Shown: positions 2,117-56,103 of the stretch, one piece after another
Position numbering within the stretch: the stretch's first letter is position 1
Layout of the letters: each line of letters starts with the position of its first letter
Source: a virus
Virus record (IMG/VR): IMGVR_UViG_3300024503_000332
DNA length: 64,000 nt
Direction: 5' to 3' (one strand)
Translations under genes and position numbers: made by a program
Notes under the pieces: model-generated
What the model saw: the letters and a program-made list of their open reading frames with translations, nothing else
What the model was told of the DNA's origin: nothing
Database searches by the model: none

Positions 2117-3132
2117 TTTAAGAACACATCGTTGATCTGTCTGTTGACACGGATAAATGTGGTACACTTACTCAACTGCTTAAGACTAGGAGCACCAACA
2201 TACGTGCAGGTGCTACGCAAGCCGCCTAGTATATCTTGTACAGTTTTCTGTACAGGACCACGATAGGGGATTTCTACAGTACGACCTTCTGAGCTTCGAT
2301 ATTCTGCAACACCGCCGCTATGCTTATTCATAGCAGTCTCTGAACTCATTCCGTAAAATATAACCTTATCATTATCGATATGGCCTCCGCCTTCATCGTG
2401 TCCTGCTAGCATACCGCCTAGCATAACGAAGTCAGCACCAGCGCCAAAGGCTTTTGCCACGTCACCTGGACAGGTACAACCGCCGTCTGCGATGATATGA
2501 GCGCCAAGACCATGAGCAGCATCAGCGCACTCCATAATAGCACTAAGCTGAGGATAACCAACGCCAGTTTGTACACGAGTAGTGCAAACGCTCCCAGGAC
2601 CGATGCCCACTTTAATAATATCTGCTCCACGTAAAACTAACTCCTGTGTCATGTCTGCGGTTACAACATTACCGGCAATGATCGTGCATTTAGGAAATGT
2701 CTTACGGACTTTAGAAATAAAATCACCAAAGTGTTCACTATACCCGTTAGCAACATCTACACAGATAAAATGAATTTCTGGATAGCTGTTTATAATCCTA
2801 GTAAGTCTTTGAAAATCAGCATCACTAGTTCCTGTGCTAACTGCAAAATAGTTTCCGCCGACATTAGCAACAAGATCTTCAAACTGATCTTCGGTATAAG
2901 ATTTTACAAGGCACGTAAACATTCTCTGAGAGTATAGTGCATCGGCCATTTCCATAGTTCCGACACCATCCATGTTTGATGCCATAATGGGAATACCTGA
3001 CCATTCCCATCCGCTGTATTTGAACTTATAAGTTCTATTCAGGTCTACTTCTTTTCTGCTAGAAAGTGTAGATCTTTTAGGCCTTATAAGAACATCTTTG
3101 AAGTCAAGTTTGATTTCGTCTTCGATTCTCAT
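2113..3132 (-). CDS. guaC: GMP reductase
   Basis: [40 protein letters not shown]-like motif, YRSSEGRTV. Confidence 0.95.
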
Positions 3133-3872
3133 CGAGGTGCAAACTCCTGTTGCATTTTGATGTTGTCAAAGAATTCTTTCTTCGTTCCAGCATCATCTTT
3201 AAAGGCGCCCTTTAAGACAGTAGTCTGTGTAAGACTAGAGTGTGCCATGATGCCACGATTCTCACAGCAACCATGTGTAGCCTGGATGTAAACTCCTAGG
3301 TCTTTGGCTCCGGTTGCTTTCTGGATTTCCCTAGCAATGTCATTAGCAAGTTCCTCCTGGAGAGTTCCACGTCGGGCACACCACTGGGCGATGCGGGTGT
3401 ACTTTGAGAGTCCAATGAGCTTCTCGGCAGCAATAAGACCAATATAAGCAACACCAACCACAGGTTGGTGATGATGGCTACACATACTGCGAAGCTCACT
3501 GCGAACAACCAGCATACCTTCGTAACGATCCTGCGTGTCATTTGGGAAAGCTGTTGCGTCTGGTGCTGGGTCATATCTTCCTGCCATTATTTCGTTAAAA
3601 TACATTTTAGCTAGTCGGCGAGCGGTGCCCTTGCTGTTAGGATCGCTTTCACGATCGATCAGTAAACGGTCAAGCACTAGTTCAAATGCTTCTGTCGCTT
3701 CGTCGATTAGTTGTTCTTTATCGCCTTCGTGTAAGTAGTCGCTGATGTTGTCACCGGCCCAAAAGCGTTTGCCTTCACGCTTCATCTTAAAGCGAATATG
3801 ATCGCCAAGATAAGCTTCTTCATATCCGCCGTCGCCGAACATGACGTCTAATGCTGTTTCTTTATTTTCCAA
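3129..3872 (-). CDS. folE: GTP cyclohydrolase I
   Basis: [31 protein letters not shown]; TTG start with GGAG SD. Confidence 0.93.
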
Positions 3873-42398: not shown

Positions 42399-44375
42399 TT
42401 AACCAAATGTCTCTAACTTACCATGCACACTGATAACACCGCTTGCATTATAGAAAGTAAATGTAACTATGTCTCGTTTGTTAGCATTGCCTGTGGGTGG
42501 CGATCCACCTTGCCAGTACAGTGTAACACCAGTGTTACTACCATCTAGTAGAACGGCGTTTGGTATTCTTCCAGTAGCACCTTGTACTAAGATAAGAGTT
42601 ACCACGGTATATTGTCCATCTAGCAGGTTCATATTAGTGAAGTCTGCGTTGAAGTTACCTTGTAGACTAGTATGTACGAATGTATCACTTAATCTATAAT
42701 CATGTTCTACTGTAGCTGTAGCACCAGCTATTGGTGCGTATACTCTTTTTACACCTTTAGCTATAGTAGTGTTTCTGATTGTCGTTGTTCCAACACCATT
42801 TGCACCCATGGTCAGTGCTGTGGCAGCACCACCTAAGGTCAATGTGGTTGGAGTACCCAATGCTGCAAATGTTGCGGCATTAGAATCTAGAGAACTGGTG
42901 CCCCAGTTAGCATTGGTTGGAATGACACTATGTAGGTCCCATGACCCATTGCTAGTACCGTTGTTATAAAGTACAGCTCTTTTATTACCGCCTGCTATGA
43001 CACTGCCCACCTGTGTGGCATCATTGTACTGTATAGTCAGTGTACCTGTGGAGTTGTTATTGAATACAAACAATGTTCCTGTAGGTAATGTAGTAGCATC
43101 TGGCAGCTTAAATGTATGATTGCTACTTCCAGAAAGTAGCTGCTGTTGATTTGAAGTTGATGTTAGTGTGGTAGTACCACCTGAACTGGTTGTTGCTGTA
43201 ACTCCATTGACGAAGTTTTTAGCACTACCCCAGTTAGAGATTGTCAAGCTACCTAGTGTACCAACTGATGTTAGGCTTGAACTAACAACATTTGATGCTA
43301 GAGTAGTTCCGGTCAACAATCCGGCAGGAGCAGTTCCTGAAACGTTACCAGTTACGTTACCAGTTACATTACCAGTAACGTTTGCAAATACAGGACCGAC
43401 GATACGTCCCATTACAGCATCTACTAGCAGTGTTGAATCGTCGGCAAAGATACTGCCATTGAGGTCTATCTTGTTGTTCAATGAAAGTACCATTGAACGT
43501 CCACTAGCATTAGTACTGATGTTTATTCCATAGCCAGGAGTAATGCTTAGTGTATCTGTATTATTAGTAGCAGCGATCAGCGGTTGTCCTGGAACTGATA
43601 CGTTTCTAAATGTAAACAGTCCGCTGGCAGGTGATGTATTATTAAGTGTAGCTATCTTTGTAGTAGGATCAACGCTGACACTTAAACCTGTGATAACGCT
43701 TATACCTCTAATACCACTGTTGGTGATAGTTACATTACCTGTTGAGCCGCTAACTGTAATACCACTGCCAGCAGTGATCTGAGTCACTCCAGTGTTAGTA
43801 AAAATCACATTGCCGGTAGACGAGCTAACTCCAATACCGGTTCCTGCTACAGCACCAGTGACTCCACTGTTACTAACAGTTAGAGTCTTAGTTGTTGGAT
43901 TTGCTGTCAGTGTTATAGCTGTTCCTGACAACAGTTTTAAGGTATCATTGAACTGTCCTGCAACGATATTGCTGCTGTTATCGACATTAAAAGTCTTGAA
44001 AAATGTTTTAGATGGATCAATGATCAGTTCACCGCCTAAGGTAGTCGATGCTGGAAGTTCTACAGTACCGTTACTGCTCTTGATCTGCGCAGACCCTAGC
44101 CATATACCATTGTTTTCAGAACCAGGTGTTAGACTTTGATCCTCTATGTACAATGATTTAAACGCTTTTCCACTATCACCTAACTGTAATGTGTTAGTTG
44201 CTGTTGGTATGATTGAACTATTAAAGTTGGTAAAATCAGCCAGAGAAACATTATTTTCTGATAATGCTGTGCTGATCAGTGTGAAGTTTTGGCTGACTGC
44301 TTTTAGAGCATCGTCGACGTTGCTCCAAAGTAAGGGAGGACTTCCTGCGGTGATGTTTGTGTTTATTCCTGACAT
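42399..44375 (-). CDS. Tail fibre protein
   Basis: VTGN repeats, AGxGI repeats, SSLTSVGTL, Ser/Thr/Gly-rich. Confidence 0.75.
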   Translation of the reverse strand: MSGINTNITAGSPPLLWSNVDDALKAVSQNFTLISTALSENNVSLADFTNFNSSIIPTATNTLQLGDSGKAFKSLYIEDQSLTPGSENNGIWLGSAQIKSSNGTVELPASTTLGGELIIDPSKTFFKTFNVDNSSNIVAGQFNDTLKLLSGTAITLTANPTTKTLTVSNSGVTGAVAGTGIGVSSSTGNVIFTNTGVTQITAGSGITVSGSTGNVTITNSGIRGISVITGLSVSVDPTTKIATLNNTSPASGLFTFRNVSVPGQPLIAATNNTDTLSITPGYGINISTNASGRSMVLSLNNKIDLNGSIFADDSTLLVDAVMGRIVGPVFANVTGNVTGNVTGNVSGTAPAGLLTGTTLASNVVSSSLTSVGTLGSLTISNWGSAKNFVNGVTATTSSGGTTTLTSTSNQQQLLSGSSNHTFKLPDATTLPTGTLFVFNNNSTGTLTIQYNDATQVGSVIAGGNKRAVLYNNGTSNGSWDLHSVIPTNANWGTSSLDSNAATFAALGTPTTLTLGGAATALTMGANGVGTTTIRNTTIAKGVKRVYAPIAGATATVEHDYRLSDTFVHTSLQGNFNADFTNMNLLDGQYTVVTLILVQGATGRIPNAVLLDGSNTGVTLYWQGGSPPTGNANKRDIVTFTFYNASGVISVHGKLETFG

Positions 44376-47300
44376 TATGTTCTCCCTACCGCTATTTCAA
44401 CAGTGCCAATATGATCACTGTCATAATCTTTTAGAGCCTTACCTACTACAGTTCCGACTTTAACATCGCCTGTGGCAGCTACAGCTACTCCTGGAATTCC
44501 TGATGTAATCAAGATGTCTCCTTTTTTAATCTTTCCAACTACTTTGCATGGAACACGACCTTGCAGCGCGACCAAGTTTTTAAATCCTGGACATGCTTCA
44601 TACATGGTATAAGCAGCAGTATTAGATACAACACCTGCTACTCTTGTATCTCCTTTGATATTAGAAGTTGTAACTTCTTTTTCACCACCAAACACAAGAA
44701 CTGTACCTACTTCATATTCTTTATCACCTTCATAGTTTTCTGCAAGGTCAGCGGAATATGTTGCCTGCAATCTTGATTCGTTCGGTGAAGTGCCAGTCAA
44801 TGTCCAACGTCCTGTTATAGTACCACTATTAGTATTACCACCTGTGGTGATCGCGGTTACTTGGATGCTCGATGCTGTTATAGGAGCATCGGTACCACCG
44901 TCTTTGGTCTTAAACTGGTGTGTATCATTCCAATACAATGATTTGTTATCAGTAGATACTGTACCAGATTGTACTAGTATACCACCTACGCTGTTCCAGC
45001 CATAGTATCTAATATAGCCACCACTACCTGCTGTGGCAGTATCAATACTGGTATTGTTATCAACGTTGACCTTGCTGACGTTAATCTCATTGGCAGAGAA
45101 GTTACCGCTCGAGTCTCTGTTAATAAGTTTGTTGTTATCGGAGGATCCTGTATAGGCCGCTGACATTTCAACAACGGTATAATCACCGTCGCCGGTTCCG
45201 GTACCACCTGTCCTTCTCAAGAAACCTGTAGTTGAATATTGAGATTTCTTAATGGATCCGCCACTGTCAACTACAGTGGTAAAGTTTACCGCAGTAATAT
45301 TGCCTGTGCTGATACTAGAGTTACCTAGTACAGTGTTAGACGCTATCTGTGAAATAGATGTCAACGGCAATGAGTTAGTTTTGATAGTGATCCAACCGTT
45401 GGTTGAAACAAACAGTGCATCATCGAAACTAGCAAGTCCTAGAGCTGCTTGGTTTATACCAGTAGCATTTGTTCTGGTAGTGGCAGCATTCATGTTTAAC
45501 TTGCTTTGATCGATAGCTGCCGATCCTGAAACTTTACTGTTTGTGATAGTTCCTGCACCTACTGATGCAGTGATTAATCTAGTTGTAGGATTCAACGATA
45601 GTGTGATATCGCCAGTTACTGTGGCGTTAACAGCACCAAAGCCTGTTCCTGTGAAACTTAACAGTTGACCGCTTGCGATGCTAGCACCAGAGAAGTCTTG
45701 GAAGTTGGCAAAGGTCATGCTCTGTAAGTTTACTGCGTCTAACGGGTTGACTGGGTTAGCGATATTGATAACCTTTTGGTTACCCATATCTAAGTTGGCC
45801 TTCATCTTCAAGGCGCCGTTAAGTGGTAGGAAACCGCCTGTGTTGATCGGAATAACCTGGCTAGGATCAACCACCGCACCGTTGTGTGTTAGGCCCAATC
45901 TACGTTCGAGATAGATACGTGTCGCGTTTTGTGTTGGAACGGTATCTGTAGCGTTGTTGGCAAATGATGAGTCTGTTGAGAACTCACTGATTGGAACACC
46001 ACGTTTAAATCCTAGACCGTCTAGGTTACTCAACGCAATAGCAGCTGAGAACGACACCTTACCAGTACCTTGGTCAACGCTAAAGTATGGACCGACTCTA
46101 AAGTTACCATATTGGTCTGTGGTCACATAGAACACACGACCTACTGTTTTTTCAATAACTTCCCCTGCTGCGTTTCTGGCGTTTACGGCTGGACCATAGA
46201 TTTCGTTTGGATAGTTAGTATCTGCGTATGAACCAGTACCAATGTCCAGCAAATCGTGTCCTGTAACACGGGTCAACGCAATACGAATGGTCAGTGTACC
46301 GTTGGCGTTGGTAGTTCCTCTACGCACACCTGCTTTGAGAGTGATAGCTGAAGTATAAGATATTACACTGTCATTCAAACCAACTCCAGACTGCACACCA
46401 GTGACTAGATTGATCTGGCTAACATATACGCGACCAAATGCTGTGTTAGTAACAGTTTCTGGATCGTACTTGGTGATTACATAGTTTACACCTTTCCAGT
46501 TAAACACAGAACCAGCTGCTCTTGATCGATCATATGGACCTAGAGCGACCACAGCAAACCACGTATCTCCCACTCTGCCTCGTACTTTACTGACAGAGTG
46601 TGTACCTGCATTTAGTAAAGATGTCTGGATCGCAGTACCGCCTGGAGTTAGAGAAAGAGTAAAAGAAGTAGTAGTTAATCCTGATGCCAATACAAAGTAA
46701 TGGGTTGTCGCGAGCAGTCCTGTAGGCAATGTTCCAGATGTTTCTAACTTGACTACATCACCGGCTGATAGTCCGTGTGCATAGGTTGATGTCAAGACGG
46801 CAGGTGAAGCTACACTTATAGTAACCGGAGTACCTCCTCCGAACACGGTATTAATAGTCCCAGATGCTGATGATACTGTAACAGGGTTATGTTTCGCTAT
46901 ACCTGGGATAGATCCTGAAGCATTAGATATCTGGAATATCGAAGTTAGTGCAGATGTGGCACTCAATGCTAGAGATGTGCTGCTTGGTATAGCCGCGATA
47001 TAGTATTGTGTACCACTGGCTATGTTACCAAAGCCTGTACCAGTAAATGCTATAGGCTGTCCAATGCTCATTAGCCCACTGTTGGTTACAGTGACCGTAT
47101 AAGCGGTAGCACTCATACTAGTTGATGCAACAGTCTGTGCGGTGTTAACGATCCACGATGCACCCGATCCGCTGACTATGTATGTGTTAGCTGCGATGCC
47201 GCTGCCACTCAATACCATACCTGCTATAATAGTACCTGATGCAAGATTGGTAACTGTTAAAATGCTACTGCTGATACTACCTGTAAATGAAGCAGTAGTG

Positions 47301-50300
47301 ATAGTAGTGGCGGTTGCAGTAGTAGTTACATGCGGAGTCGTTGATAATGTTATCTTACCACTAGATGGAATCGATCCAACATAATATTGTTGACCTGCTG
47401 TGATACCACCAAACGCACCGGTGGTCAACACGTTCATCAACCCTGCGCTAGTAGTGACAGAAAGTACTGATCCTCCGTTAGTAGCACTAATAGTTAACTG
47501 GGTACCGCTAATAATAGAGCTAACGTAGTAAGTAGTTCCAGAAGTCAGCCCACCGATCGGTGACGAACCCTGGGCTGTAGTGAACGATACTGGCATGTTT
47601 ACAACCATACCTAGTGTACTAGTCACTGTGATATAGTTTGTTAGTGCATCTGAGTTAGTTGCTTGAGTACTAATACCAAACTTGATCGGTGTGTTTACAG
47701 TCATGCCTGTAGTTGAACTTAATGTCACTTGGTTGCTAGTACCAGTGATAGTTGTCGAACTTACAGTTTGACTGATGCTGACGGTCCATGTTGAGCCGTT
47801 GCCGCTACCGCTGATATTGGAAACGATATATGTTCCAGAAGCAGTAGTTCCTCCACTTAATACCATTCCTGCTGAGATAGTACCTGACGATAGAGTTCCG
47901 ACAGTTAATGTTGTGCCACTAATACTAGAACCAGTCATAGTCGCTGTGGTCTGTGCTGTGGCAGTGGCTGTTGTTTCTACAGTAGCGTAATCATTTGGCT
48001 GATACACTGTCATAGAAATATATTGATAGTTTTCTCTTAGTAGAGTGGTTGTTAACCCAGTTGGAGTATAAGAGAATGTTCCAGAGCCTGCTGAAGTCGT
48101 GGTAACTGCTCCACCGCCTTTAACTGTAGATATCTGGAAGGTATTTGATGTAGGGTTAATAACATAATACACCTGCCCTGCAGTAATACCAGTAGGTAAT
48201 GTAGCTGTGCTACTAAAAGTCAACGAATAGTTTGTTAATAAACCGTGGTTATTTCTTGTAACGACTGCAGGACTTGCATTGCTAATAGTACAAGTAAACG
48301 GTGCATTAGGATCGTTATAGTCTGTGAACTGTAGAACACGATAAACGTTATTAGCAGCTTCAGTTAACACAAGACCAGTCGATGGTCGAACACTAACTCC
48401 AGACAGTGTACCAGTCAACATCAGTGCTTGGTTCTGTCTCACCGTCATTAATGTGCCATCATTGATCTGTGCATACAGACCAGATAGACCGCTGGCACCT
48501 GTAGTAGAGCCTAGCGTTAGACGTGCAACACCGGAAGGTAAGTCAGCACCTGTGTAGGCACTATTGATCGGATAACGATACAATATACCACTGCCATGAT
48601 CGACTTCTAGTTCTGAGTTTGGAAGTGGAACATATGTATAGTTGTTAATATAGACAATAACGCCTTGTGCAGAGTTTGCATAGTTTCCGCTAGGATAATA
48701 ACAGGTCACTGATTGTGCTAGGTCATAGTATAAATCTGTGGGTGTTGGAACTTCTAATGGATCGCTGCCTTCTGCGACAAGAGCATATACACCGTGCGCA
48801 CTTGAACCTGCGATAGAACGTATCTGACCACCGTTGATAGAATAGTAAGATACTTGACAGTAGTAGGTAAACATTGACACAGCTTCTGTCAAACCGCCGT
48901 TGGTTACCATCACACCGTAGCCTAGGTCAGCGACTTGTGTAAAGTCGTTTGACAGCATACTACGGTTACCCGGCATCAATAGTTCATAGACACGATTATA
49001 GGTATGTGTTCCTGAACCTGCCGAAGTTGTTGCTACAGGAGTGATACTTCCTAATGTATCAGTGACCTGGAAAGAGTTCGCTCCAAGTCCGATTAAAAGC
49101 ACATAATATCTCTTGCCCACAGACAGACCGGTTGGTAATGAACCTGTGGTTGTAAAGGTAATAGTGGCGCCGGCCTGAAGACCGTGATCGACTTTGGTAA
49201 TGACCGCAGGGCTGCCGTTGCTGATGGTACAGGTCTGTACACCAACGTCTTTGGTATAAGGTGTTCCTGGATCAAACACGAATGTAGCCGTAGAACCGTT
49301 TACATTGTAGACCCAATCTCTAACGTAGTTTATTCTGTAAACACTGCCAGTGATAATAACTGAAGCAGGTAAGTTAGGGAATCTCTGAAGACCAGTAACA
49401 ACGATTCTAGTTGAACTGATCTTGCTGACCATGGTAAATTCTAGGTTGCCTGCGAAGCCGTCGACAAACATACCGCCGGCAAACTGCTTGCGTCCAGTGG
49501 ATCCGATAAATGAAGCACTTTCTTGACAGTATGGAGATTTAGCAAGGATTTGACCTGCAGGATCAAGAATCATCATGAACCCGCCTTGTCCTTGTGCTGT
49601 CATTCGACGTAGCATCGTAGCGTCGTTCATCATGAACACGTCAATCTTGTTATTATCTTTTGGAAGATTAACTAATGTTGATCCACTGACAATATCGATA
49701 ATAGCATTAACTAAGTTAGTTACGATGGCTCTAGTACCACCTTCTGCTATGTAAGCATTATCGATGATCTGGGGTACTAGTTCTTGTGTGCTGTTGGTAT
49801 AGAGAATGTTCTGTAGAACATAGTCAGTCAAGACGATTAAATGATTCCACGCTGCCACGGTTTGATCTAACTGATCAGTGATGGCTTTTAGAGCACTAGC
49901 ACTTTGGAAGTACTTTAACGCTGCTGAAATAGTTCTATTATACCCACCGTATCTAAGATCAAATATTAATGCTTCAACAATCAGACCCACGTCTCTCTTA
50001 CATAGTTTTCTGTTGTAGGTAAATGTACCTGGACTGTATGTTGCATTAAGATAAGAAATAACTTGATTTTGTATACTAACTGAAGCTGCTAAAGTAACAG
50101 TTCTATCGTTGGCCGCTACAATATTAGCGGCGTTAGCATCAATGGTTGGATCTACAGGAGAAGCTGCTGATGCTGCACCAACACCGTTGATAATGATATC
50201 TTTGATGATGTCAAACGCACTAGTAAGTGTGGTAGCTGATACACCGCTAGATGAAGCCGCAGGTAGAGTGGTCGTCTGTGAAGTAGTGTTAGAAGCTGAT

Positions 50301-52945
50301 TTACCAGTCCATGATGTTTGATTTGATATTACAGCAGGAAGAATTATCTTTAACTGATTAAGTACACTAGTAAATGCACTGGTTTCTCCGCCGACGGTTG
50401 TTGCATTGAGCGCATCATAGTAAGCAAGTCCTGCTTTAATAGTCTGACTGGTGCCGCCATAGATTAGGTCATAGACCATGGCATCAATGATAAATCCTAC
50501 ATCTCTTCCACACTTGTCTGCGTCATATCCAGGAATGCTTCCAGGATTGAGTTGATCGGTGATATAGCCTAAGACTTCATTTTGTATAAATGTCCTATTG
50601 GCAATGATGATATCTTTAGCATATGATTTATCAGTTACCAACCCTCCTGGATTAGTATAGGTAATAACAGTCGACGGCGTACCTGATTCTATGATATAAA
50701 CGATCTTGTTGAACAGTGTGGTCACAGTCGCAGCACTGGCCACATAGGTAGTGCTACCATAGATAGTATTCAAGACAAGGTCTCTTACTTTCTTGATAGC
50801 AGCAAGTGTCTGACCTTTCTGATAGCTAGTTACCACTCCTGAGTAAGATCTTAGATATGCATTGGCTGCGGTCACGGTTCGATATGTAGATCCTAGTACT
50901 AGGTCATCCATGACCGCATTAATCATGAGATCCACGTCTCTCTTACATTTTACTGTATCAAATGTAAAGTTTCCATCGAATGGTTCTATGTCTGCGGCTA
51001 TCTGCGCATCGATCCAACCGACGATTTCTTCTTGGAACCATTGTTTGTTTAGATATAGTAACTGTGCTGCTGCCTTGTAGTTTCCAGCGTTAGAAATAGC
51101 AGGATATACTCTATTGGCAGGATCTGTTAGATAATGTCTTGCAAATAGTTGTGTTGACGTAGTGATGCTGTCAATAGTAGAATCTCTACGGAATATATCA
51201 AATGCCCAAGGACTTGAACTAGGTCCTGATCTAGGCTTAACTAAGACACGTCTGAACTCGTCACCGATCAATGAAACGTTCTGTGATACTTTCAAAGGAA
51301 AGTTTTCTTCGTAGATACCACTTTCGATAAAAATAGTGATCTGTATATTTTTAGTAATGTCACCATAGCTTATAGCTTCACCAATCTGGAAAGACCCATA
51401 TTTGATGTCAACGTCAAACAGTTCATTTCCCTGATTATCCATAGCACCAGTATGTGTTAGAATCTGTGCTAATGCTCCCGAGGTTTCGCCTCGCATGTAT
51501 AATCCAGGTCTAATATCTCTAGTTGCTAGAGCAGTAGGCGTATCTACCGAATAGTTTCCAGTAAAGTCTGTGAGCTTACCTGCTGTATAGATAGCGAACG
51601 TTGGAAGGTTAGCCACGACACTAGGAACGCTGGTAAAACCAGAACCTGGATCAGTGATCGTAACGCTTTGGATAACTCCGCCGACTACGTTTGCAGTACC
51701 AAATGCGCCAGATCCTCCACCGCCAGTAATACGTACAGAAACAAGTCCAAACCCACTACCACCATTGGAAATAGCGATGTTGTTGACCTTATAGGTTACA
51801 TCAAATGTTGCGCCTGCGCCGAATGTTACTTTGGTTGTGTTTGAGGCAGTACTAGCTACTGATAAGTTACCTGGAATCGCACTATAAACACCTGAACTTA
51901 GTATCTTAAATGTTATTAGAGAACCCGGAGTGGATGCTGTACTGAGCACCTGTATCTTACAAGGCTGGCCACCGGAGGCGACTGTACCACCATCTAGGGT
52001 AATAATATCGCCAACCCAATAGTTTGAACCAGGAGCGTTGATCGTTATCTTATCAACGCTCATTAGGGCAGCGCCAACGAAGCCCGAACCGGAATCGTTT
52101 GAAATACTGATATTGCTTAGAGTACAGGTTCCTGCGCCATTATTATAAGTTAATAGCTTTTTGTATGGTCCTATCTCTACTCTAGATTCGTTTACTAGTT
52201 CTTCTGCACGTTTTAATGCAGCTTCTATTGTGCGATAGGCATAGGCAAGAGCTCTACCTTGTAGTTCGTCGCTGACTCCAGGACGTGCATCAGCACCGCT
52301 AGTTGCGACATATAAGTTTGCGACAGAACCAAAAGCACTGCTGTCTACGTAGGATTTTGTTGCTGCGATCAATCCATCATAGGTTTGATCATCTTCAGGC
52401 TGTGGGTTTCTTGACAAAATCAACGGACCAGTCATTCTTCCGAATGCTTCGTTGACTTCACCTGTGGCAGGATCTATAGCATTAATACCTGCTCTAGCGA
52501 TCTTGCTGTCTACGTATCCTTTGTTTGCTGCTTCGCCAGATGCAACAGGAGTTGTAAGATCAACGATTCTGTATTGATTACCACCTGATGTTGCGCTAAG
52601 ATTTCCACCTAGCTGTGGATATCTATCTGCTGAAATCGCAGAGAAAATAGCGTTAAGTCTGATTTCATTAGGATTAGATGTTTGATCTACGCTAATGCCA
52701 ACGCCCGGAACTAGCTGTTTAAACTTTAAACCTGTAGTAGTTTGGTTAACAGTTACTAGCGCACCTTCTTGACCTACATAGGAAGTAGGAGCGTCTGATA
52801 GTCCTGTAAACTTTAGTCTTTCACCGAGACCTAAAGAACTGTATAGTTCGAGAAAGTTGTCGTTGACTTTACTAAAGGAGTCGCGAATACTATCGCCTGT
52901 GCCGTCATTACCAACCGCACCAATATCAATGATTTTTCTTGCCAT
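44375..52945 (-). CDS. Giant tail fibre/structural protein with C-terminal intramolecular-chaperone domain
   Basis: 2856 aa; NDGTGDSIRDSF N-terminus, CxRDV repeats, SPAV..HGL..LPTG..YYV repeats, ADLAENY...GRVPCKV C-terminus. Confidence 0.8.
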   Translation of the reverse strand: MARKIIDIGAVGNDGTGDSIRDSFSKVNDNFLELYSSLGLGERLKFTGLSDAPTSYVGQEGALVTVNQTTTGLKFKQLVPGVGISVDQTSNPNEIRLNAIFSAISADRYPQLGGNLSATSGGNQYRIVDLTTPVASGEAANKGYVDSKIARAGINAIDPATGEVNEAFGRMTGPLILSRNPQPEDDQTYDGLIAATKSYVDSSAFGSVANLYVATSGADARPGVSDELQGRALAYAYRTIEAALKRAEELVNESRVEIGPYKKLLTYNNGAGTCTLSNISISNDSGSGFVGAALMSVDKITINAPGSNYWVGDIITLDGGTVASGGQPCKIQVLSTASTPGSLITFKILSSGVYSAIPGNLSVASTASNTTKVTFGAGATFDVTYKVNNIAISNGGSGFGLVSVRITGGGGSGAFGTANVVGGVIQSVTITDPGSGFTSVPSVVANLPTFAIYTAGKLTDFTGNYSVDTPTALATRDIRPGLYMRGETSGALAQILTHTGAMDNQGNELFDVDIKYGSFQIGEAISYGDITKNIQITIFIESGIYEENFPLKVSQNVSLIGDEFRRVLVKPRSGPSSSPWAFDIFRRDSTIDSITTSTQLFARHYLTDPANRVYPAISNAGNYKAAAQLLYLNKQWFQEEIVGWIDAQIAADIEPFDGNFTFDTVKCKRDVDLMINAVMDDLVLGSTYRTVTAANAYLRSYSGVVTSYQKGQTLAAIKKVRDLVLNTIYGSTTYVASAATVTTLFNKIVYIIESGTPSTVITYTNPGGLVTDKSYAKDIIIANRTFIQNEVLGYITDQLNPGSIPGYDADKCGRDVGFIIDAMVYDLIYGGTSQTIKAGLAYYDALNATTVGGETSAFTSVLNQLKIILPAVISNQTSWTGKSASNTTSQTTTLPAASSSGVSATTLTSAFDIIKDIIINGVGAASAASPVDPTIDANAANIVAANDRTVTLAASVSIQNQVISYLNATYSPGTFTYNRKLCKRDVGLIVEALIFDLRYGGYNRTISAALKYFQSASALKAITDQLDQTVAAWNHLIVLTDYVLQNILYTNSTQELVPQIIDNAYIAEGGTRAIVTNLVNAIIDIVSGSTLVNLPKDNNKIDVFMMNDATMLRRMTAQGQGGFMMILDPAGQILAKSPYCQESASFIGSTGRKQFAGGMFVDGFAGNLEFTMVSKISSTRIVVTGLQRFPNLPASVIITGSVYRINYVRDWVYNVNGSTATFVFDPGTPYTKDVGVQTCTISNGSPAVITKVDHGLQAGATITFTTTGSLPTGLSVGKRYYVLLIGLGANSFQVTDTLGSITPVATTSAGSGTHTYNRVYELLMPGNRSMLSNDFTQVADLGYGVMVTNGGLTEAVSMFTYYCQVSYYSINGGQIRSIAGSSAHGVYALVAEGSDPLEVPTPTDLYYDLAQSVTCYYPSGNYANSAQGVIVYINNYTYVPLPNSELEVDHGSGILYRYPINSAYTGADLPSGVARLTLGSTTGASGLSGLYAQINDGTLMTVRQNQALMLTGTLSGVSVRPSTGLVLTEAANNVYRVLQFTDYNDPNAPFTCTISNASPAVVTRNNHGLLTNYSLTFSSTATLPTGITAGQVYYVINPTSNTFQISTVKGGGAVTTTSAGSGTFSYTPTGLTTTLLRENYQYISMTVYQPNDYATVETTATATAQTTATMTGSSISGTTLTVGTLSSGTISAGMVLSGGTTASGTYIVSNISGSGNGSTWTVSISQTVSSTTITGTSNQVTLSSTTGMTVNTPIKFGISTQATNSDALTNYITVTSTLGMVVNMPVSFTTAQGSSPIGGLTSGTTYYVSSIISGTQLTISATNGGSVLSVTTSAGLMNVLTTGAFGGITAGQQYYVGSIPSSGKITLSTTPHVTTTATATTITTASFTGSISSSILTVTNLASGTIIAGMVLSGSGIAANTYIVSGSGASWIVNTAQTVASTSMSATAYTVTVTNSGLMSIGQPIAFTGTGFGNIASGTQYYIAAIPSSTSLALSATSALTSIFQISNASGSIPGIAKHNPVTVSSASGTINTVFGGGTPVTISVASPAVLTSTYAHGLSAGDVVKLETSGTLPTGLLATTHYFVLASGLTTTSFTLSLTPGGTAIQTSLLNAGTHSVSKVRGRVGDTWFAVVALGPYDRSRAAGSVFNWKGVNYVITKYDPETVTNTAFGRVYVSQINLVTGVQSGVGLNDSVISYTSAITLKAGVRRGTTNANGTLTIRIALTRVTGHDLLDIGTGSYADTNYPNEIYGPAVNARNAAGEVIEKTVGRVFYVTTDQYGNFRVGPYFSVDQGTGKVSFSAAIALSNLDGLGFKRGVPISEFSTDSSFANNATDTVPTQNATRIYLERRLGLTHNGAVVDPSQVIPINTGGFLPLNGALKMKANLDMGNQKVINIANPVNPLDAVNLQSMTFANFQDFSGASIASGQLLSFTGTGFGAVNATVTGDITLSLNPTTRLITASVGAGTITNSKVSGSAAIDQSKLNMNAATTRTNATGINQAALGLASFDDALFVSTNGWITIKTNSLPLTSISQIASNTVLGNSSISTGNITAVNFTTVVDSGGSIKKSQYSTTGFLRRTGGTGTGDGDYTVVEMSAAYTGSSDNNKLINRDSSGNFSANEINVSKVNVDNNTSIDTATAGSGGYIRYYGWNSVGGILVQSGTVSTDNKSLYWNDTHQFKTKDGGTDAPITASSIQVTAITTGGNTNSGTITGRWTLTGTSPNESRLQATYSADLAENYEGDKEYEVGTVLVFGGEKEVTTSNIKGDTRVAGVVSNTAAYTMYEACPGFKNLVALQGRVPCKVVGKIKKGDILITSGIPGVAVAATGDVKVGTVVGKALKDYDSDHIGTVEIAVGRT

Positions 52946-53331: not shown

Positions 53332-53571
53332 ATGTTAAAGCTATTAGCCAAACTTTTTGGAGCCAAGAATACAGCACCAGCTGAGCCAGAGGCACCCTAT
53401 AAAGTAGAAGCACCTGCTCCAGCACCAACGCCGGTCGCAGAACAGGCAGCTCAGGCTGTGGTAGAAAGCATTGCACCTGCCAAAAAGAAAGCACCTGCCA
53501 AAAAGACTGGTGCTCCTAAGCAAGGTGCTGCTAAAAAACCACGTAAGCCTAAATCAAAGCCCCAAGCGTAA
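53332..53571 (+). CDS. Lys/Ala/Pro-rich small protein
   Basis: EAPYKVEAP, histone-like basic tail; AAGGAG SD and TAAATA upstream. Confidence 0.75.
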   Translation: MLKLLAKLFGAKNTAPAEPEAPYKVEAPAPAPTPVAEQAAQAVVESIAPAKKKAPAKKTGAPKQGAAKKPRKPKSKPQA

Positions 53572-54579
53572 GGCTTGCTGATGTAGAGCAAAACTAGCTA
53601 GATTTTTAGCTTTGCTCTCACACATAATATCAAAGCTGTCTCGGAAACTCAGAGCCCATTCATTAACTGCTGTATTCCAGTAGAAGTTAGAGTGAGCTCT
53701 GAGTTTCGCTTTTTTGTAACCTTCGGAAAGTAGTTTGTGATAGTCGGGCAATGTTTGATCGCAATGATCTACGAGAACATCTTCACGACTAATAGAATAA
53801 TGCATGACAGGCCTAACACCCCGCCAGCTCTCAACCACCATTTGAACACGCGAGTCCATGGGTTGTATATATTCCCCGCTATGTACCCAATGGTGATGTA
53901 CATCCATAACCACAGGAACGATATCGCTAATACTAAGGCAAGTTTCAAGTCCATGCGTCATTTCCTCATTTTCGATAGTGATAGTGTTACGTGCTTCGGG
54001 TGTTAAGCGGCCCAATACAGCACGTATTCCATCGGGGCCTCGTCGACCCGCGATATGAACGTTGATTTTAAAGTCCTGAAACGTTTGGCCAAATCCCATC
54101 CAGCGAGCCATGTCCACATGATATTCAAACTCCTCTATAGATCGGCTGACAATATCATCGTTATCACTTGCCAGCACAGTAAACTGACCAGGATGAAAAC
54201 TGAGCCTAACACGATTCTTGCGAGCCAAATCACCGACGGCTCTGAAATGTCTTTCGGCGTAATCTCGCACATCGGGAGTCCGCCAAAACCAAGACCAGCT
54301 TGGCTCAGTGTACACAGGAAGTATATCGCTGCTGAGTCGTACCATTCTAAGATCTTCATCAAGTGCTCCTACACGTTCTACAAGAAGACGTGTGGACTCA
54401 ATGTTTTGTTTCATGAGAGACCATAGTTTATCTACAGCCACGTCCTTGGTTTGTCTATTTAACCAAGCTACGGTAGTAGTTCCGGTGTTGTAGATCTTGC
54501 ACTCATCTTTAGGCTTAATGCCATCTACCTGATGAGGGTGATCGATCCATTTGCAAGCGAAGCCAATACGTTTAGTCAT
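53554..54579 (-). CDS. uvsE: UV-damage endonuclease
   Basis: RIGFAC, RLSSDILP, HPGQF, IENEE, DVHHH, AHS, MCESKAK. Confidence 0.92.
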   Translation of the reverse strand: MTKRIGFACKWIDHPHQVDGIKPKDECKIYNTGTTTVAWLNRQTKDVAVDKLWSLMKQNIESTRLLVERVGALDEDLRMVRLSSDILPVYTEPSWSWFWRTPDVRDYAERHFRAVGDLARKNRVRLSFHPGQFTVLASDNDDIVSRSIEEFEYHVDMARWMGFGQTFQDFKINVHIAGRRGPDGIRAVLGRLTPEARNTITIENEEMTHGLETCLSISDIVPVVMDVHHHWVHSGEYIQPMDSRVQMVVESWRGVRPVMHYSISREDVLVDHCDQTLPDYHKLLSEGYKKAKLRAHSNFYWNTAVNEWALSFRDSFDIMCESKAKNLASFALHQQALRLGL

Positions 54580-54585
54580 AGTATT

Positions 54586-54615
54586 ATTATACAATAAATC
54601 AACGCCAGTTGTCAA
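54586..54615 (-). promoter_or_regulatory. Sigma70 promoter; predicted leaderless uvsE mRNA
   Basis: TTGACA-18 nt-TATAAT, 6 nt before the ATG. Confidence 0.55.
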
Positions 54616-55285
54616 TGATGAAAGGATCCATTACATCTTCTGGTTTTGGATCTCCGTGGAATACTAATACGCTACATTGTGCAGGTATAGCGATGTCTTT
54701 TACTTCTTTGAATACACGTTTGGCGTTTATATAGACTAGCTCTTCTTTGGTTCTTATTTCCCATTTATAGCTCATGATCCATTCTAATGGCCAATATTTG
54801 ATATAAGACTTAGATATGCTGTAGATCCAATCTTGATCCCCGGGCATAGACAATGCTTCTCCGGGATTTTCTTTAAACTTTGCCCATATGATAGACTGTG
54901 ATCCTTTAGTCCAACTCATTACTGAACTGTTTAACACACACCAGTCCTTATGGAATGCTCGGTTGAAGTCTCTTATTCCATAAAAATCTTCGCCGCCAAG
55001 TAACTTTTCTATGTTACCACAGACTACAACATCGAGATCAAAATAAAGTATGCGGCCTTGTATGTCCAACGACGGATCGAACATATGAACTTTATGCCAC
55101 CAACCTTTGGCATATCCGGCATTTGATTGCACTATCAGTCTTACACCTTCGATGGGTTCGGGATCGTCCGTTAGGCAAACAAAATCGTAAGGTATCGTAA
55201 TATGTCGAGAGACCATATTTCTCAATCTCTCGACATATTCTTTTCCGTATTTGTTTCCAAATCTAACGCAGAGTATAGTTACCAA
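54599..55285 (-). CDS. GT-A fold glycosyltransferase (GT8-like)
   Basis: FVCLTD, WWHKV, YFDLD, NSSVM, GDQD, FHGDPKP. Confidence 0.8.
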   Translation of the reverse strand: MVTILCVRFGNKYGKEYVERLRNMVSRHITIPYDFVCLTDDPEPIEGVRLIVQSNAGYAKGWWHKVHMFDPSLDIQGRILYFDLDVVVCGNIEKLLGGEDFYGIRDFNRAFHKDWCVLNSSVMSWTKGSQSIIWAKFKENPGEALSMPGDQDWIYSISKSYIKYWPLEWIMSYKWEIRTKEELVYINAKRVFKEVKDIAIPAQCSVLVFHGDPKPEDVMDPFIIDNWR

Positions 55286-55437
55286 TGTCGTATCACTCCT
55301 GCTACAATAAAAATATTAGTGATAATGTAGATCAGGATGATTACAGTACGGACAAGTGCTATTTTATCAGCTTCCTGATCATTAGCACCTGCCTTTTCAC
55401 CTAGGGCCTTTGCCCATAGTCTCCATATGTTACGCAT
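55279..55437 (-). CDS. Small single-TM phage protein (52 aa, not in ORF track)
   Basis: MRNIWRLWAKALGEKAGANDQEADKIALVRT...AGVIRHW. Confidence 0.7.
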   Translation of the reverse strand: MRNIWRLWAKALGEKAGANDQEADKIALVRTVIILIYIITNIFIVAGVIRHW

Positions 55438-55972
55438 CACCCTCATAGATCGCTGAGTTTCCTGCGTGTTCGAAAACTTCTACACTTCTCAGTTTTACAC
55501 CTTGTCCAACCGGATATCTGGCAGTGAAAGTATTTTTAGGTCCTTGAGTACCGTGCAGTATCCAATGATCACCTCTCTGAAAGGTCTTAAGAATATCATC
55601 CATGGTCTTGTATGCGAGTTCTGCAAACTTTTCACAACCTACAGCTTCGACAACTCGTAGGTCACACATACCTCCTTGGTCCTGCAATCCATATGCCGCC
55701 ATGCCTCGGAAAATATCTAGATAAGGGTCGTCTTGTGCGATAATCAGAGTATGATCAAACATATGTTCTGACCATTCTTTAAATGCTTTAAGACCGCCGA
55801 AGTCCATTACCCAGTTACGATCATCTAGTGTTTCTGATTCAAATATTAGTTTGATACCGATAGAATAACCGTGGAGCAATGAACAATGACTATGGGTGCT
55901 ACGCCATTGTCTGAAACAACAACTGAGCCCTCTGTCGTTGCCGTATGTTTTAGTTGAAATATATTTCGCCAT
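55430..55972 (-). CDS. queD: 6-carboxytetrahydropterin synthase (QueD/PTPS)
   Basis: HCSLLHGY, WVMDFGGLK, FDHTL, GCEKFA, VEVFEH; AGGAGG SD. Confidence 0.85.
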   Translation of the reverse strand: MAKYISTKTYGNDRGLSCCFRQWRSTHSHCSLLHGYSIGIKLIFESETLDDRNWVMDFGGLKAFKEWSEHMFDHTLIIAQDDPYLDIFRGMAAYGLQDQGGMCDLRVVEAVGCEKFAELAYKTMDDILKTFQRGDHWILHGTQGPKNTFTARYPVGQGVKLRSVEVFEHAGNSAIYEGDA

Positions 55973-56007
55973 CTCTTGCCTCCTGTAAAAATAAGCGAGT
56001 AAGTTTG

Positions 56008-56055
56008 ATGACACGCAGAGTATTTAGAGAGGGGTGAGCGTCATTCGAGTCCTCT
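56008..56055 (-). ncRNA. Candidate H-type pseudoknot / riboswitch-like leader of queD
   Basis: P1 AGAGG/CCUCU; loop AUGACGC pairs with downstream GUGUCAU; lies between the promoter and SD. Confidence 0.45.
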
Positions 56056-56074
56056 TTGTGTATGTGTGTTTATT

Positions 56075-56103
56075 AATATACTATTTTTAGTTACCTTTGT
56101 CAA
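56075..56103 (-). promoter_or_regulatory. Sigma70 promoter for queD
   Basis: TTGACA-17 nt-TATATT. Confidence 0.65.

Follow-up and report, generated by a model that had tools for sequence, protein, structure and literature searches.

A conserved pseudoknot in the leaders of phage queD genes, a probable cis-regulatory RNA of a new consensus type

The preQ1-I riboswitch is an H-type pseudoknot of about 34 nt in which helix P1 is closed by the pair between G5 and a C, loop L1 carries U6, and a specificity cytosine immediately precedes the P1 3′ strand, as part of UC in type I and of AC in the other two types (PMC11625349). Examples are those of B. subtilis queC, T. tengcongensis, and E. coli. Its L3 is A-rich, with A30 contacting the ligand, its short P2 buries Shine-Dalgarno (SD) nucleotides or favors a terminator, and all described members repress expression (PMC11625349). 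The preQ1-II (RF01054) and preQ1-III (RF02680) riboswitches are, like the phage RNA described here, pseudoknotted translational elements of the queuosine pathway, but they adopt HLout-type folds of 80–100 nt with other conserved nucleotides. In the add adenine riboswitch of Vibrio vulnificus, the default structure sequesters the SD sequence or the AUG, and the ligand-stabilized aptamer captures the strand that masks the ribosome binding site (RBS). The ON wiring proposed below for the phage RNA is the same, although the add aptamer is a three-way junction and the phage one a pseudoknot. RNA operators are widely used by T4-like phages, and gp32 recognizes a pseudoknot in the leader of the T4 gene 32. 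Like the phage RNA, the gene 32 leader begins its mRNA with a translation-controlling pseudoknot of H-type; unlike it, this leader binds its own gene product, a single-stranded DNA-binding protein, and it has neither a conserved junction pocket nor an alternative anti-RBS pairing.

The window, that is, the whole stretch of 64,000 nucleotides analyzed (IMG/VR record IMGVR_UViG_3300024503_000332), derives from a T4-like genome and includes a queD-like gene. The gene product matched Pfam PF01242 (PTPS, E = 1.6e-13) and PHROG 2389 (QueD-like, E = 7e-33), and its score against the NCBIfam QueD model was below the cut-off. It shares 46% identity with the QueD of Pseudomonas phage Iggy, the gene of which sits within a queE-queC-queD-folE-dpdA cluster. 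A sigma-70-type promoter was found where the initial annotation had put it and, if transcription starts about 7 nt after its −10 box, it produces a leader of about 95 nt. The 114-nt gap between queD and the upstream ORF had been considered unusual for a tightly packed genome, a description that is only partly right since the ORF list of the window has several other gaps of 200–670 nt. All features of the locus are on the minus strand. They are as follows.

56087-56089 (−), stop codon of the upstream 203-aa ORF
56103-56098 and 56080-56075 (−), sigma-70-type promoter, TTGACA and TATATT separated by a 17-nt spacer (11/12 match, the best of the region)
near 56068 (−), predicted transcription start, about 7 nt past the −10 box
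56051-56055 (−), P1 5′ strand AGAGG, pairs with 56028-56032
56045-56050 (−), L1, ACUCGA; a variable base, then an invariant CU, then a spacer that differs in length among loci
56038-56044 (−), P2 5′ strand AUGACGC, pairs with 56008-56014
56033-56037 (−), L2, UCACC; the family consensus is UCA-N-C and its final C is invariant
56028-56032 (−), P1 3′ strand CCUCU, pairs with 56051-56055
56015-56027 (−), L3, CUAAAUACUCUGC, 13 nt; consensus N-U-A-N-A-N-A-Y-U-C-U-G-C
56007-56014 (−), P2 3′ strand GUGUCAU(C), which doubles as the anti-start-codon strand
55973-56006 (−), remaining expression platform, with the conserved CAAACUUACUCGCUU segment and the SD sequence AGGAGG at 55984-55979
55430-55972 (−), queD-like gene, 180 aa, ATG at 55972-55970 (Pfam PF01242 and PHROG 2389)

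Promoters with a match of at least 10/12 were present in 51 of 160 distinct upstream regions of related loci, and their commonest end was 7 nt before P1, which places the start of the aptamer at the 5′ end of the mRNA. A terminator search detected no terminator-like site in the queD leader. Control would therefore be translational, and a transcription attenuator was rejected for the same reason.

The pseudoknot described in the initial annotation was recovered in full, and every coordinate proved correct. P1 is formed by AGAGG (56055-56051) and CCUCU (56032-56028), its 18-nt loop (56050-56033) includes AUGACGC (56044-56038), and this segment forms seven pairs, one of them G-U, with 56014-56008, a 13-nt linker lying in between. 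The covariance model R1 produced exactly one match in the window, at 56005-56058, with 60.3 bits. The minimum free energy (MFE) of the single-sequence fold, −14.7 kcal/mol, was not beyond chance, but its z value of 0.39 is uninformative because the fold program cannot model pseudoknots and nearest-neighbor models cannot score the knot. The unconstrained MFE structure included P1 as well as a helix joining the start codon to the P2 3′ strand. That the pseudoknot exceeds chance is indicated by comparison among loci and not by energy. The AUG within the aptamer loop opens a frame of six codons (MTLTPL, 56024-56044, minus strand) with its stop in L3. An upstream ORF or leader peptide was rejected, as most homologs have no AUG at this point and no SD sequence precedes the frame, which is probably incidental.

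A protein search of IMG/VR with QueD identified 520 relatives. The best 80 of the 520 were examined, and the motif was found just upstream of queD in 71 of them. A MAFFT alignment of 50 distinct aptamers derived from this search (A1) showed 16 invariant columns and variation in both helices. P1 was 99.6% paired in A1 and 98.9% in A2, the alignment from the pattern scan described below. While its two closing G-C pairs were invariant in 50 of 50 and 73 of 73 sequences, two other positions covaried, producing the variants AGAGG/CCUCU, AGCGG/CCGCU, AGUGG/CCACU, and UGCGG/CCGCA. The pair formed by A1 columns 4 and 32 was AU in 43 sequences and UA in 6, and that of columns 6 and 30 was CG in 29, AU in 12, and UA in 9. 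The covariation score of the whole structure was 0.296 in A1 against 0.137 in shuffled alignments (0 of 500 reached the observed value) and 0.359 against 0.142 in A2; with slid partners it fell to 0.04–0.11. The 76% pairing of P2 in the MAFFT and Infernal alignments is an underestimate, as both misplace a one-base gap in this helix. P2 was therefore recounted relative to L2 and UCUGC as anchors. In this count, which comprised 135 distinct aptamers, the five core pairs were 81–92% paired, 87% overall, compared to 57% on average and at most 64% over 500 trials in which the tails were swapped and to 26–49% after sliding. Between four and six kinds of pair occurred at each P2 position (pair 1, for instance, was UA in 68, CG in 21, AU in 20, and GC in 9), and there are lineages in which one base has been lost from both strands and others with a bulge. 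Homologous leaders keep both helices that had been proposed for the window, with covariation in A1, A2, and the anchor-based count, and a covariance model was built from phage queD leaders. By these sequence comparisons, the queD leader holds a real and conserved H-type pseudoknot.

The consensus of the P1 strands is (A/U)G(C/A/U)GG on the 5′ side and CC(G/U/A)C(U/A) on the 3′ side. L1 is N-C-U plus 0–7 nt, with CU invariant, and the position that follows the P1 5′ strand is A, C, or U in roughly equal shares of the distinct aptamers. L2 is UCAUC in 98, UCACC in 21, UCAAC in 15, and UAAUC in 1 of the 135. L3 measured 13 nt in every instance found, the search itself having used a 13-nt linker as an anchor. 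The first half of L3 is rich in A, which occupies positions 3, 5, and 7, and its second half is the invariant Y-U-C-U-G-C that provides the UCUGC end. At least 13 loop positions are invariant or nearly so over more than 130 distinct sequences in which the helices vary freely. For L2 and L3, the search pattern itself contributes to this conservation in the half of the data obtained with it, but not in A1.

The pattern used to scan IMG/VR was composed only of L2, the P1 3′ strand, and L3, and it matched at least 119 stretches. Among the 80 loci listed, R1 confirmed 79, at 38–69 bits, and the remaining one was a chance match. The queD start codon was located 22–40 nt past UCUGC in 78 of the 79 confirmed listed loci, a nearly exclusive association. 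The sole confirmed listed motif without an adjacent queD (L158, 6776-6830, minus strand) is followed by an unrelated 113-aa ORF; after this ORF comes a gene of the DAHP/KDO8P-synthase family (Pfam PF00793, 6.6e-70). The QueD proteins of the carriers are often just 32–45% identical to that of the window and, since the motif persists at this distance, the RNA is far better conserved than QueD. Five large carrier contigs (207–344 kb, one of them rated 99% complete) have one copy each, always before queD and, in these five, never before folE or the queE-like gene. One contig, IMGVR_UViG_3300024346_007619, includes tandem queD paralogs that are 40% and 77% identical to the window QueD. Its motif, at about 2428-2466, precedes only the first and more distant copy, and it is additional to the 71 of 80 mentioned above.

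In a scan of prokaryotes with one genome per species, real motifs were recognized in 3 of the 80 loci examined with R1. The three are on short or phage-like MAG contigs, two with queD downstream and one (L250) at a contig end. Full-length matches of 30 bits in Photobacterium and Vibrio were discarded as chance; they are inside coding sequence and have no P1. Among cultured phages, a nucleotide search with 1.3 kb gave no match, and an aptamer search at E ≤ 10 returned nothing or short chance matches. R1 did not match the queD regions of Synechococcus phage BUCT-ZZ01, Pseudanabaena phage Pan1, Chryseobacterium phage MA9V-3, Erwinia phage Ep032, or Pseudomonas phage Iggy. Judging from these searches, the pseudoknot is real, widespread, and tied to queD. 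It occurs almost exclusively on contigs of uncultured phages, of which well over a hundred have it. Full-text searches of the literature outside subscription journals found no description of a phage queD leader RNA.

The distribution of the motif bears on whether the RNA could be a protein-binding translational operator, in which a phage protein or QueD itself would shift the balance between the knot and the helix that covers the RBS. The carrier genome analyzed here is T4-like, 71 of the 160 distinct upstream regions place the leader behind a TAAATA box within 25 nt, which resembles a late promoter, and the conserved loop nucleotides could equally be protein contacts. However, the motif spans QueD proteins of 32–45% identity on contigs of very different size and gene order; such diversity of lineages leaves no obvious protein partner, QueD apart, that all carriers would share. 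One neighbor alone is frequent, a small ORF of 55–63 aa after queD, and it occurs in 41 of 161 distinct carrier loci. In addition, small-molecule aptamers typically have this kind of build, a compact knot whose junction is strictly conserved. We consider an operator of this kind decidedly unlikely.

The sequence downstream of the knot indicated how the RNA could act on translation. In the unconstrained MFE structure of the window leader, UGUCAUC (56013-56007) forms an alternative helix with GAUGGCG (55973-55967), and in this free state 4/4 SD and 3/3 AUG nucleotides are paired. The segment that begins with the P2 3′ strand and extends as far as the start codon was then folded by MFE for 138 distinct platforms. 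The SD sequence or the AUG was paired in all 138, and in 99% its partner was the P2 3′ strand, which lies 22–40 nt upstream of the AUG. This alternative helix takes different shapes. In type a, to which the window belongs, the arrangement is GUCAUC-CAAACUU...GGAG...GAUGGC; type b is a CCUAUG...CAUAGG hairpin over the SD sequence, type c pairs CAUUGUU...AACAAUG over the AUG, and type d pairs GUCUU...GGAGAC over the SD sequence. In at least four platform architectures, the P2 3′ strand is thus the shared and mutually exclusive anti-RBS strand that joins a conserved aptamer to a variable platform, an arrangement expected of riboswitches in general. The second codon of queD (GCA, GCG, ACU, or GUA) changes in step with this strand, as seen in the combinations of AAGUCAUC with GAUGACUU, UACCAU with AUGGUA, and UUGCUAUC with GAUGGCAA. 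GCG is found as the second codon together with the CUUACUCGCUU platform subtype, and GCA together with CUUGCU. The P2 5′ strand, AUGACGC, imitates the start codon region, AUGGCGA; the P2 3′ strand complements both the loop and the RBS region, and thus the P2 5′ strand is an RBS decoy.

Since the knot and the RBS mask share nucleotides, formation of the knot should free the RBS. In partition function calculations of 152 leaders, blocking the P2 strands, a crude intervention of 6 nt per strand, raised the mean unpaired probability of the SD sequence from 0.43 to 0.63 and that of the AUG from 0.21 to 0.41, and RBS accessibility increased in 84% of the leaders. In the window leader, the MFE was −10.8 kcal/mol with P2 blocked and −14.1 kcal/mol when free, and a second helix, UCGCU.UAUUUU with AGAGAU.GGCGA (55967-55999, minus strand), still covered the AUG in the blocked state. 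The predicted release of the RBS is therefore partial in this leader, and the folding model hints at a third conformer in type a platforms.

In the mechanism that we propose, the more stable RBS-sequestering helix would form by default, leaving queD untranslated. A small ligand would stabilize the pseudoknot so that P2 captures the anti-RBS strand, and the RBS would then be released and queD translated, that is, the element would be an ON switch. The initial annotation had missed that the P2 3′ strand is the anti-RBS strand, the property that suggests the ON logic. Because the P2 block is crude and a second helix lies over the AUG of the window, the ON direction is something that we infer; it appears quite likely, provided that the RNA functions as a switch in the first place. 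We also infer the binding of a small molecule and that this binding favors the knot. On balance, we think it probable that the queD leader is a cis-regulatory RNA with a new type of consensus that is specific to phages, a pseudoknot of about 49–55 nt that works as a ligand-stabilized ON switch, and the most likely assignment is a new riboswitch class that activates queD translation.

Two competing helices could by themselves give a temperature-dependent or kinetic switch, and the unremarkable MFE agrees with a ligand-independent element such as a co-transcriptional folding timer, a thermosensor, or an mRNA stability element that fixes queD translation at a low level. A simple thermometer or timer would not need the near-invariant loop positions, at least 13 in number, and the strict tie to one enzyme gene points to a pathway signal instead. 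An element of this type is very improbable in our estimation.

A ligand-stabilized switch in front of a que gene calls for comparison with preQ1-I, and the likenesses are several. Both RNAs have H-type topology and a P1 of 5 bp with an invariant G-C floor, and the phage P1 is often AGAGG/CCUCU, as in Bacillus preQ1-I. An invariant C is located directly 5′ of the P1 3′ strand, at the position of the specificity cytosine; the base before it is U in 98, C in 21, and A in 15 of the UCA-N-C aptamers, which are 134 of the 135. The first half of L3 is A-rich and could lie in the P1 minor groove, and in both cases the RNA belongs to the leader of a que gene, with an effect on translation initiation that is predicted for the phage RNA. 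The differences begin with the length of the aptamer, 49–55 nt in phages and about 34 nt in preQ1-I. L1 is N-C-U-(N) in the phage RNA and U(U/C) in preQ1-I, the U that contacts the ligand not being conserved in phages. L3 has 13 nt and ends in the invariant UCUGC, for which the preQ1-I loop of about 6–8 nt has no counterpart. P2 has 4–7 freely covarying pairs, compared to 3–4 bp in preQ1-I. The P2 3′ strand of the phage RNA is an anti-RBS strand distant from the SD sequence with a predicted ON outcome, while that of preQ1-I buries the SD sequence or favors a terminator and turns expression OFF. Unlike preQ1-I, the phage motif is found only on phage-like contigs.

Model searches in both directions separated the two RNAs. 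The scan with the Rfam preQ1 models, RF00522, RF01054, and RF02680, that the initial annotation had proposed gave no preQ1-I, preQ1-II, or preQ1-III match in the window, either along its full length with gathering thresholds or, with E ≤ 10, in segments of 501 nt and 71 nt; a search of 71 nt of a second locus (L003) with E ≤ 10 gave none either. The motif is absent from Rfam, the only hits, mir-241, CC0196, cow-rumen-1, and CRISPR-DR48, being discarded as chance matches. Conversely, R1 run with filters off did not match the aptamers of three preQ1-I loci from Listeria and Bacillus, and its best unrelated match scored 9.8 bits. These loci had been found with RF00522, two above the gathering score and the third just below it, at 36.4 bits. 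Because the consensus differs and the models do not match either way, the RNA was not filed as a member of preQ1-I. The initial annotation had left the choice between a preQ1-I variant and a new class that senses a deazaguanine or pterin intermediate; of the two, the new class fits better.

A divergent true member of preQ1-I would hold preQ1 or preQ0 in the canonical pocket, with P2 and L3 enlarged and rewired in phages. Such a relationship would account for the common topology, the 5-bp P1 that is often AGAGG/CCUCU, the invariant closing G-C pair with a C at the specificity position, the A-rich first half of L3, and the control of a que gene. It is at odds with the blank results of the Rfam models and of R1 on the three preQ1-I loci, with the variable base after P1, with the UCUGC segment, and with a logic that is ON and not OFF. 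The gene content of the carriers, described next, also speaks against it, and we regard this membership as unlikely.

One enzyme of the pathway was detected elsewhere in the window.

3129-3872 (−), FolE (GTP cyclohydrolase I) (tblastn; NCBIfam FolE, 1.6e-38)

This folE is 52 kb from queD and has no copy of the leader motif. Pathway content was read from the five related large carrier contigs of 207–344 kb. FolE (about 135 bits) and a radical-SAM protein of about 300 aa were present in 5/5. When a relative of the radical-SAM protein was compared to NCBIfam, the best matches were all QueE models, below their cut-offs. QueC above the cut-off was found in 0/5 and so was a TGT/DpdA homolog, the 344-kb genome rated 99% complete being included in both counts. 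With FolE, QueD, and a QueE-like enzyme but neither QueC nor DpdA, the phage branch appears to stop at CPH4 or CDG. In the sampled genomes, no phage-encoded path to preQ0 or preQ1 is apparent, the point that weighs against a preQ1-I member.

QueD catalyzes the step by which dihydroneopterin triphosphate is committed to 7-deazapurine synthesis. If a biosynthetic gene is to be switched ON, the ligand has to be a feed-forward molecule or a signal and not the end product, an arrangement less usual than feedback repression. The predicted ON direction could, speculatively, suit feed-forward control by the substrate or a pterin, or a signal of the infection state, better than feedback by preQ1. Since the invariant C adjoins the invariant G-C floor, the junction suggests, again as speculation, a guanine-faced heterocycle of the GTP→H2NTP→CPH4→CDG branch, or a 7-deazaguanine. 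A tentative but reasonable possibility is a phage-only class that senses a ligand other than preQ1 (for example, the QueD substrate dihydroneopterin triphosphate, a related pterin, or an early 7-deazapurine such as CDG) and switches on translation of the committed enzyme of the truncated FolE-QueD-QueE branch.

To our knowledge, riboswitch classes carried mainly by viruses are very rare and all known preQ1-family switches repress expression. If our reading is true, the queD leader would give the queuosine/7-deazaguanine pathway its first natural ON switch, and it would point to an unrecognized use of the FolE-QueD-QueE branch in large freshwater phages. A phage RNA with a preQ1-I-like junction that turns queD on would add an aptamer consensus for structural and ligand work, and it would show a phage timing a nucleotide-derived pathway without proteins. 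It would also raise the question of which product FolE, QueD, and the QueE-like enzyme yield in phages without a recognizable QueC or DpdA. Its hundreds of natural variants with several platforms would constitute an unusually well-sampled system for the study of switch design.

The two ORFs that follow queD in the window overlap in series on the minus strand. A 55-aa ORF (55279-55446, PHROG 1679) overlaps the queD stop by 17 nt, and it is in turn overlapped by a 228-aa ORF (54599-55285) that belongs to PHROG 1962, labeled glycosyltransferase, and has no Pfam or NCBIfam match. The 228-aa family is found in 39 of the 161 distinct carrier loci, and the products of both ORFs may share the pathway of queD. 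The UvdE gene of the window is at 53554-54615. Beyond queD, the genes vary among loci L081 to L199 and include those of a SAM methyltransferase, an NAD-dependent epimerase/dehydratase, a DAHP-synthase-family enzyme, and a UvdE endonuclease. These neighborhoods are of sugar and nucleotide chemistry and not a classical que operon. Just past the queD block of the window, 44375-52945 (minus strand) is occupied by a single ORF of 2856 aa.
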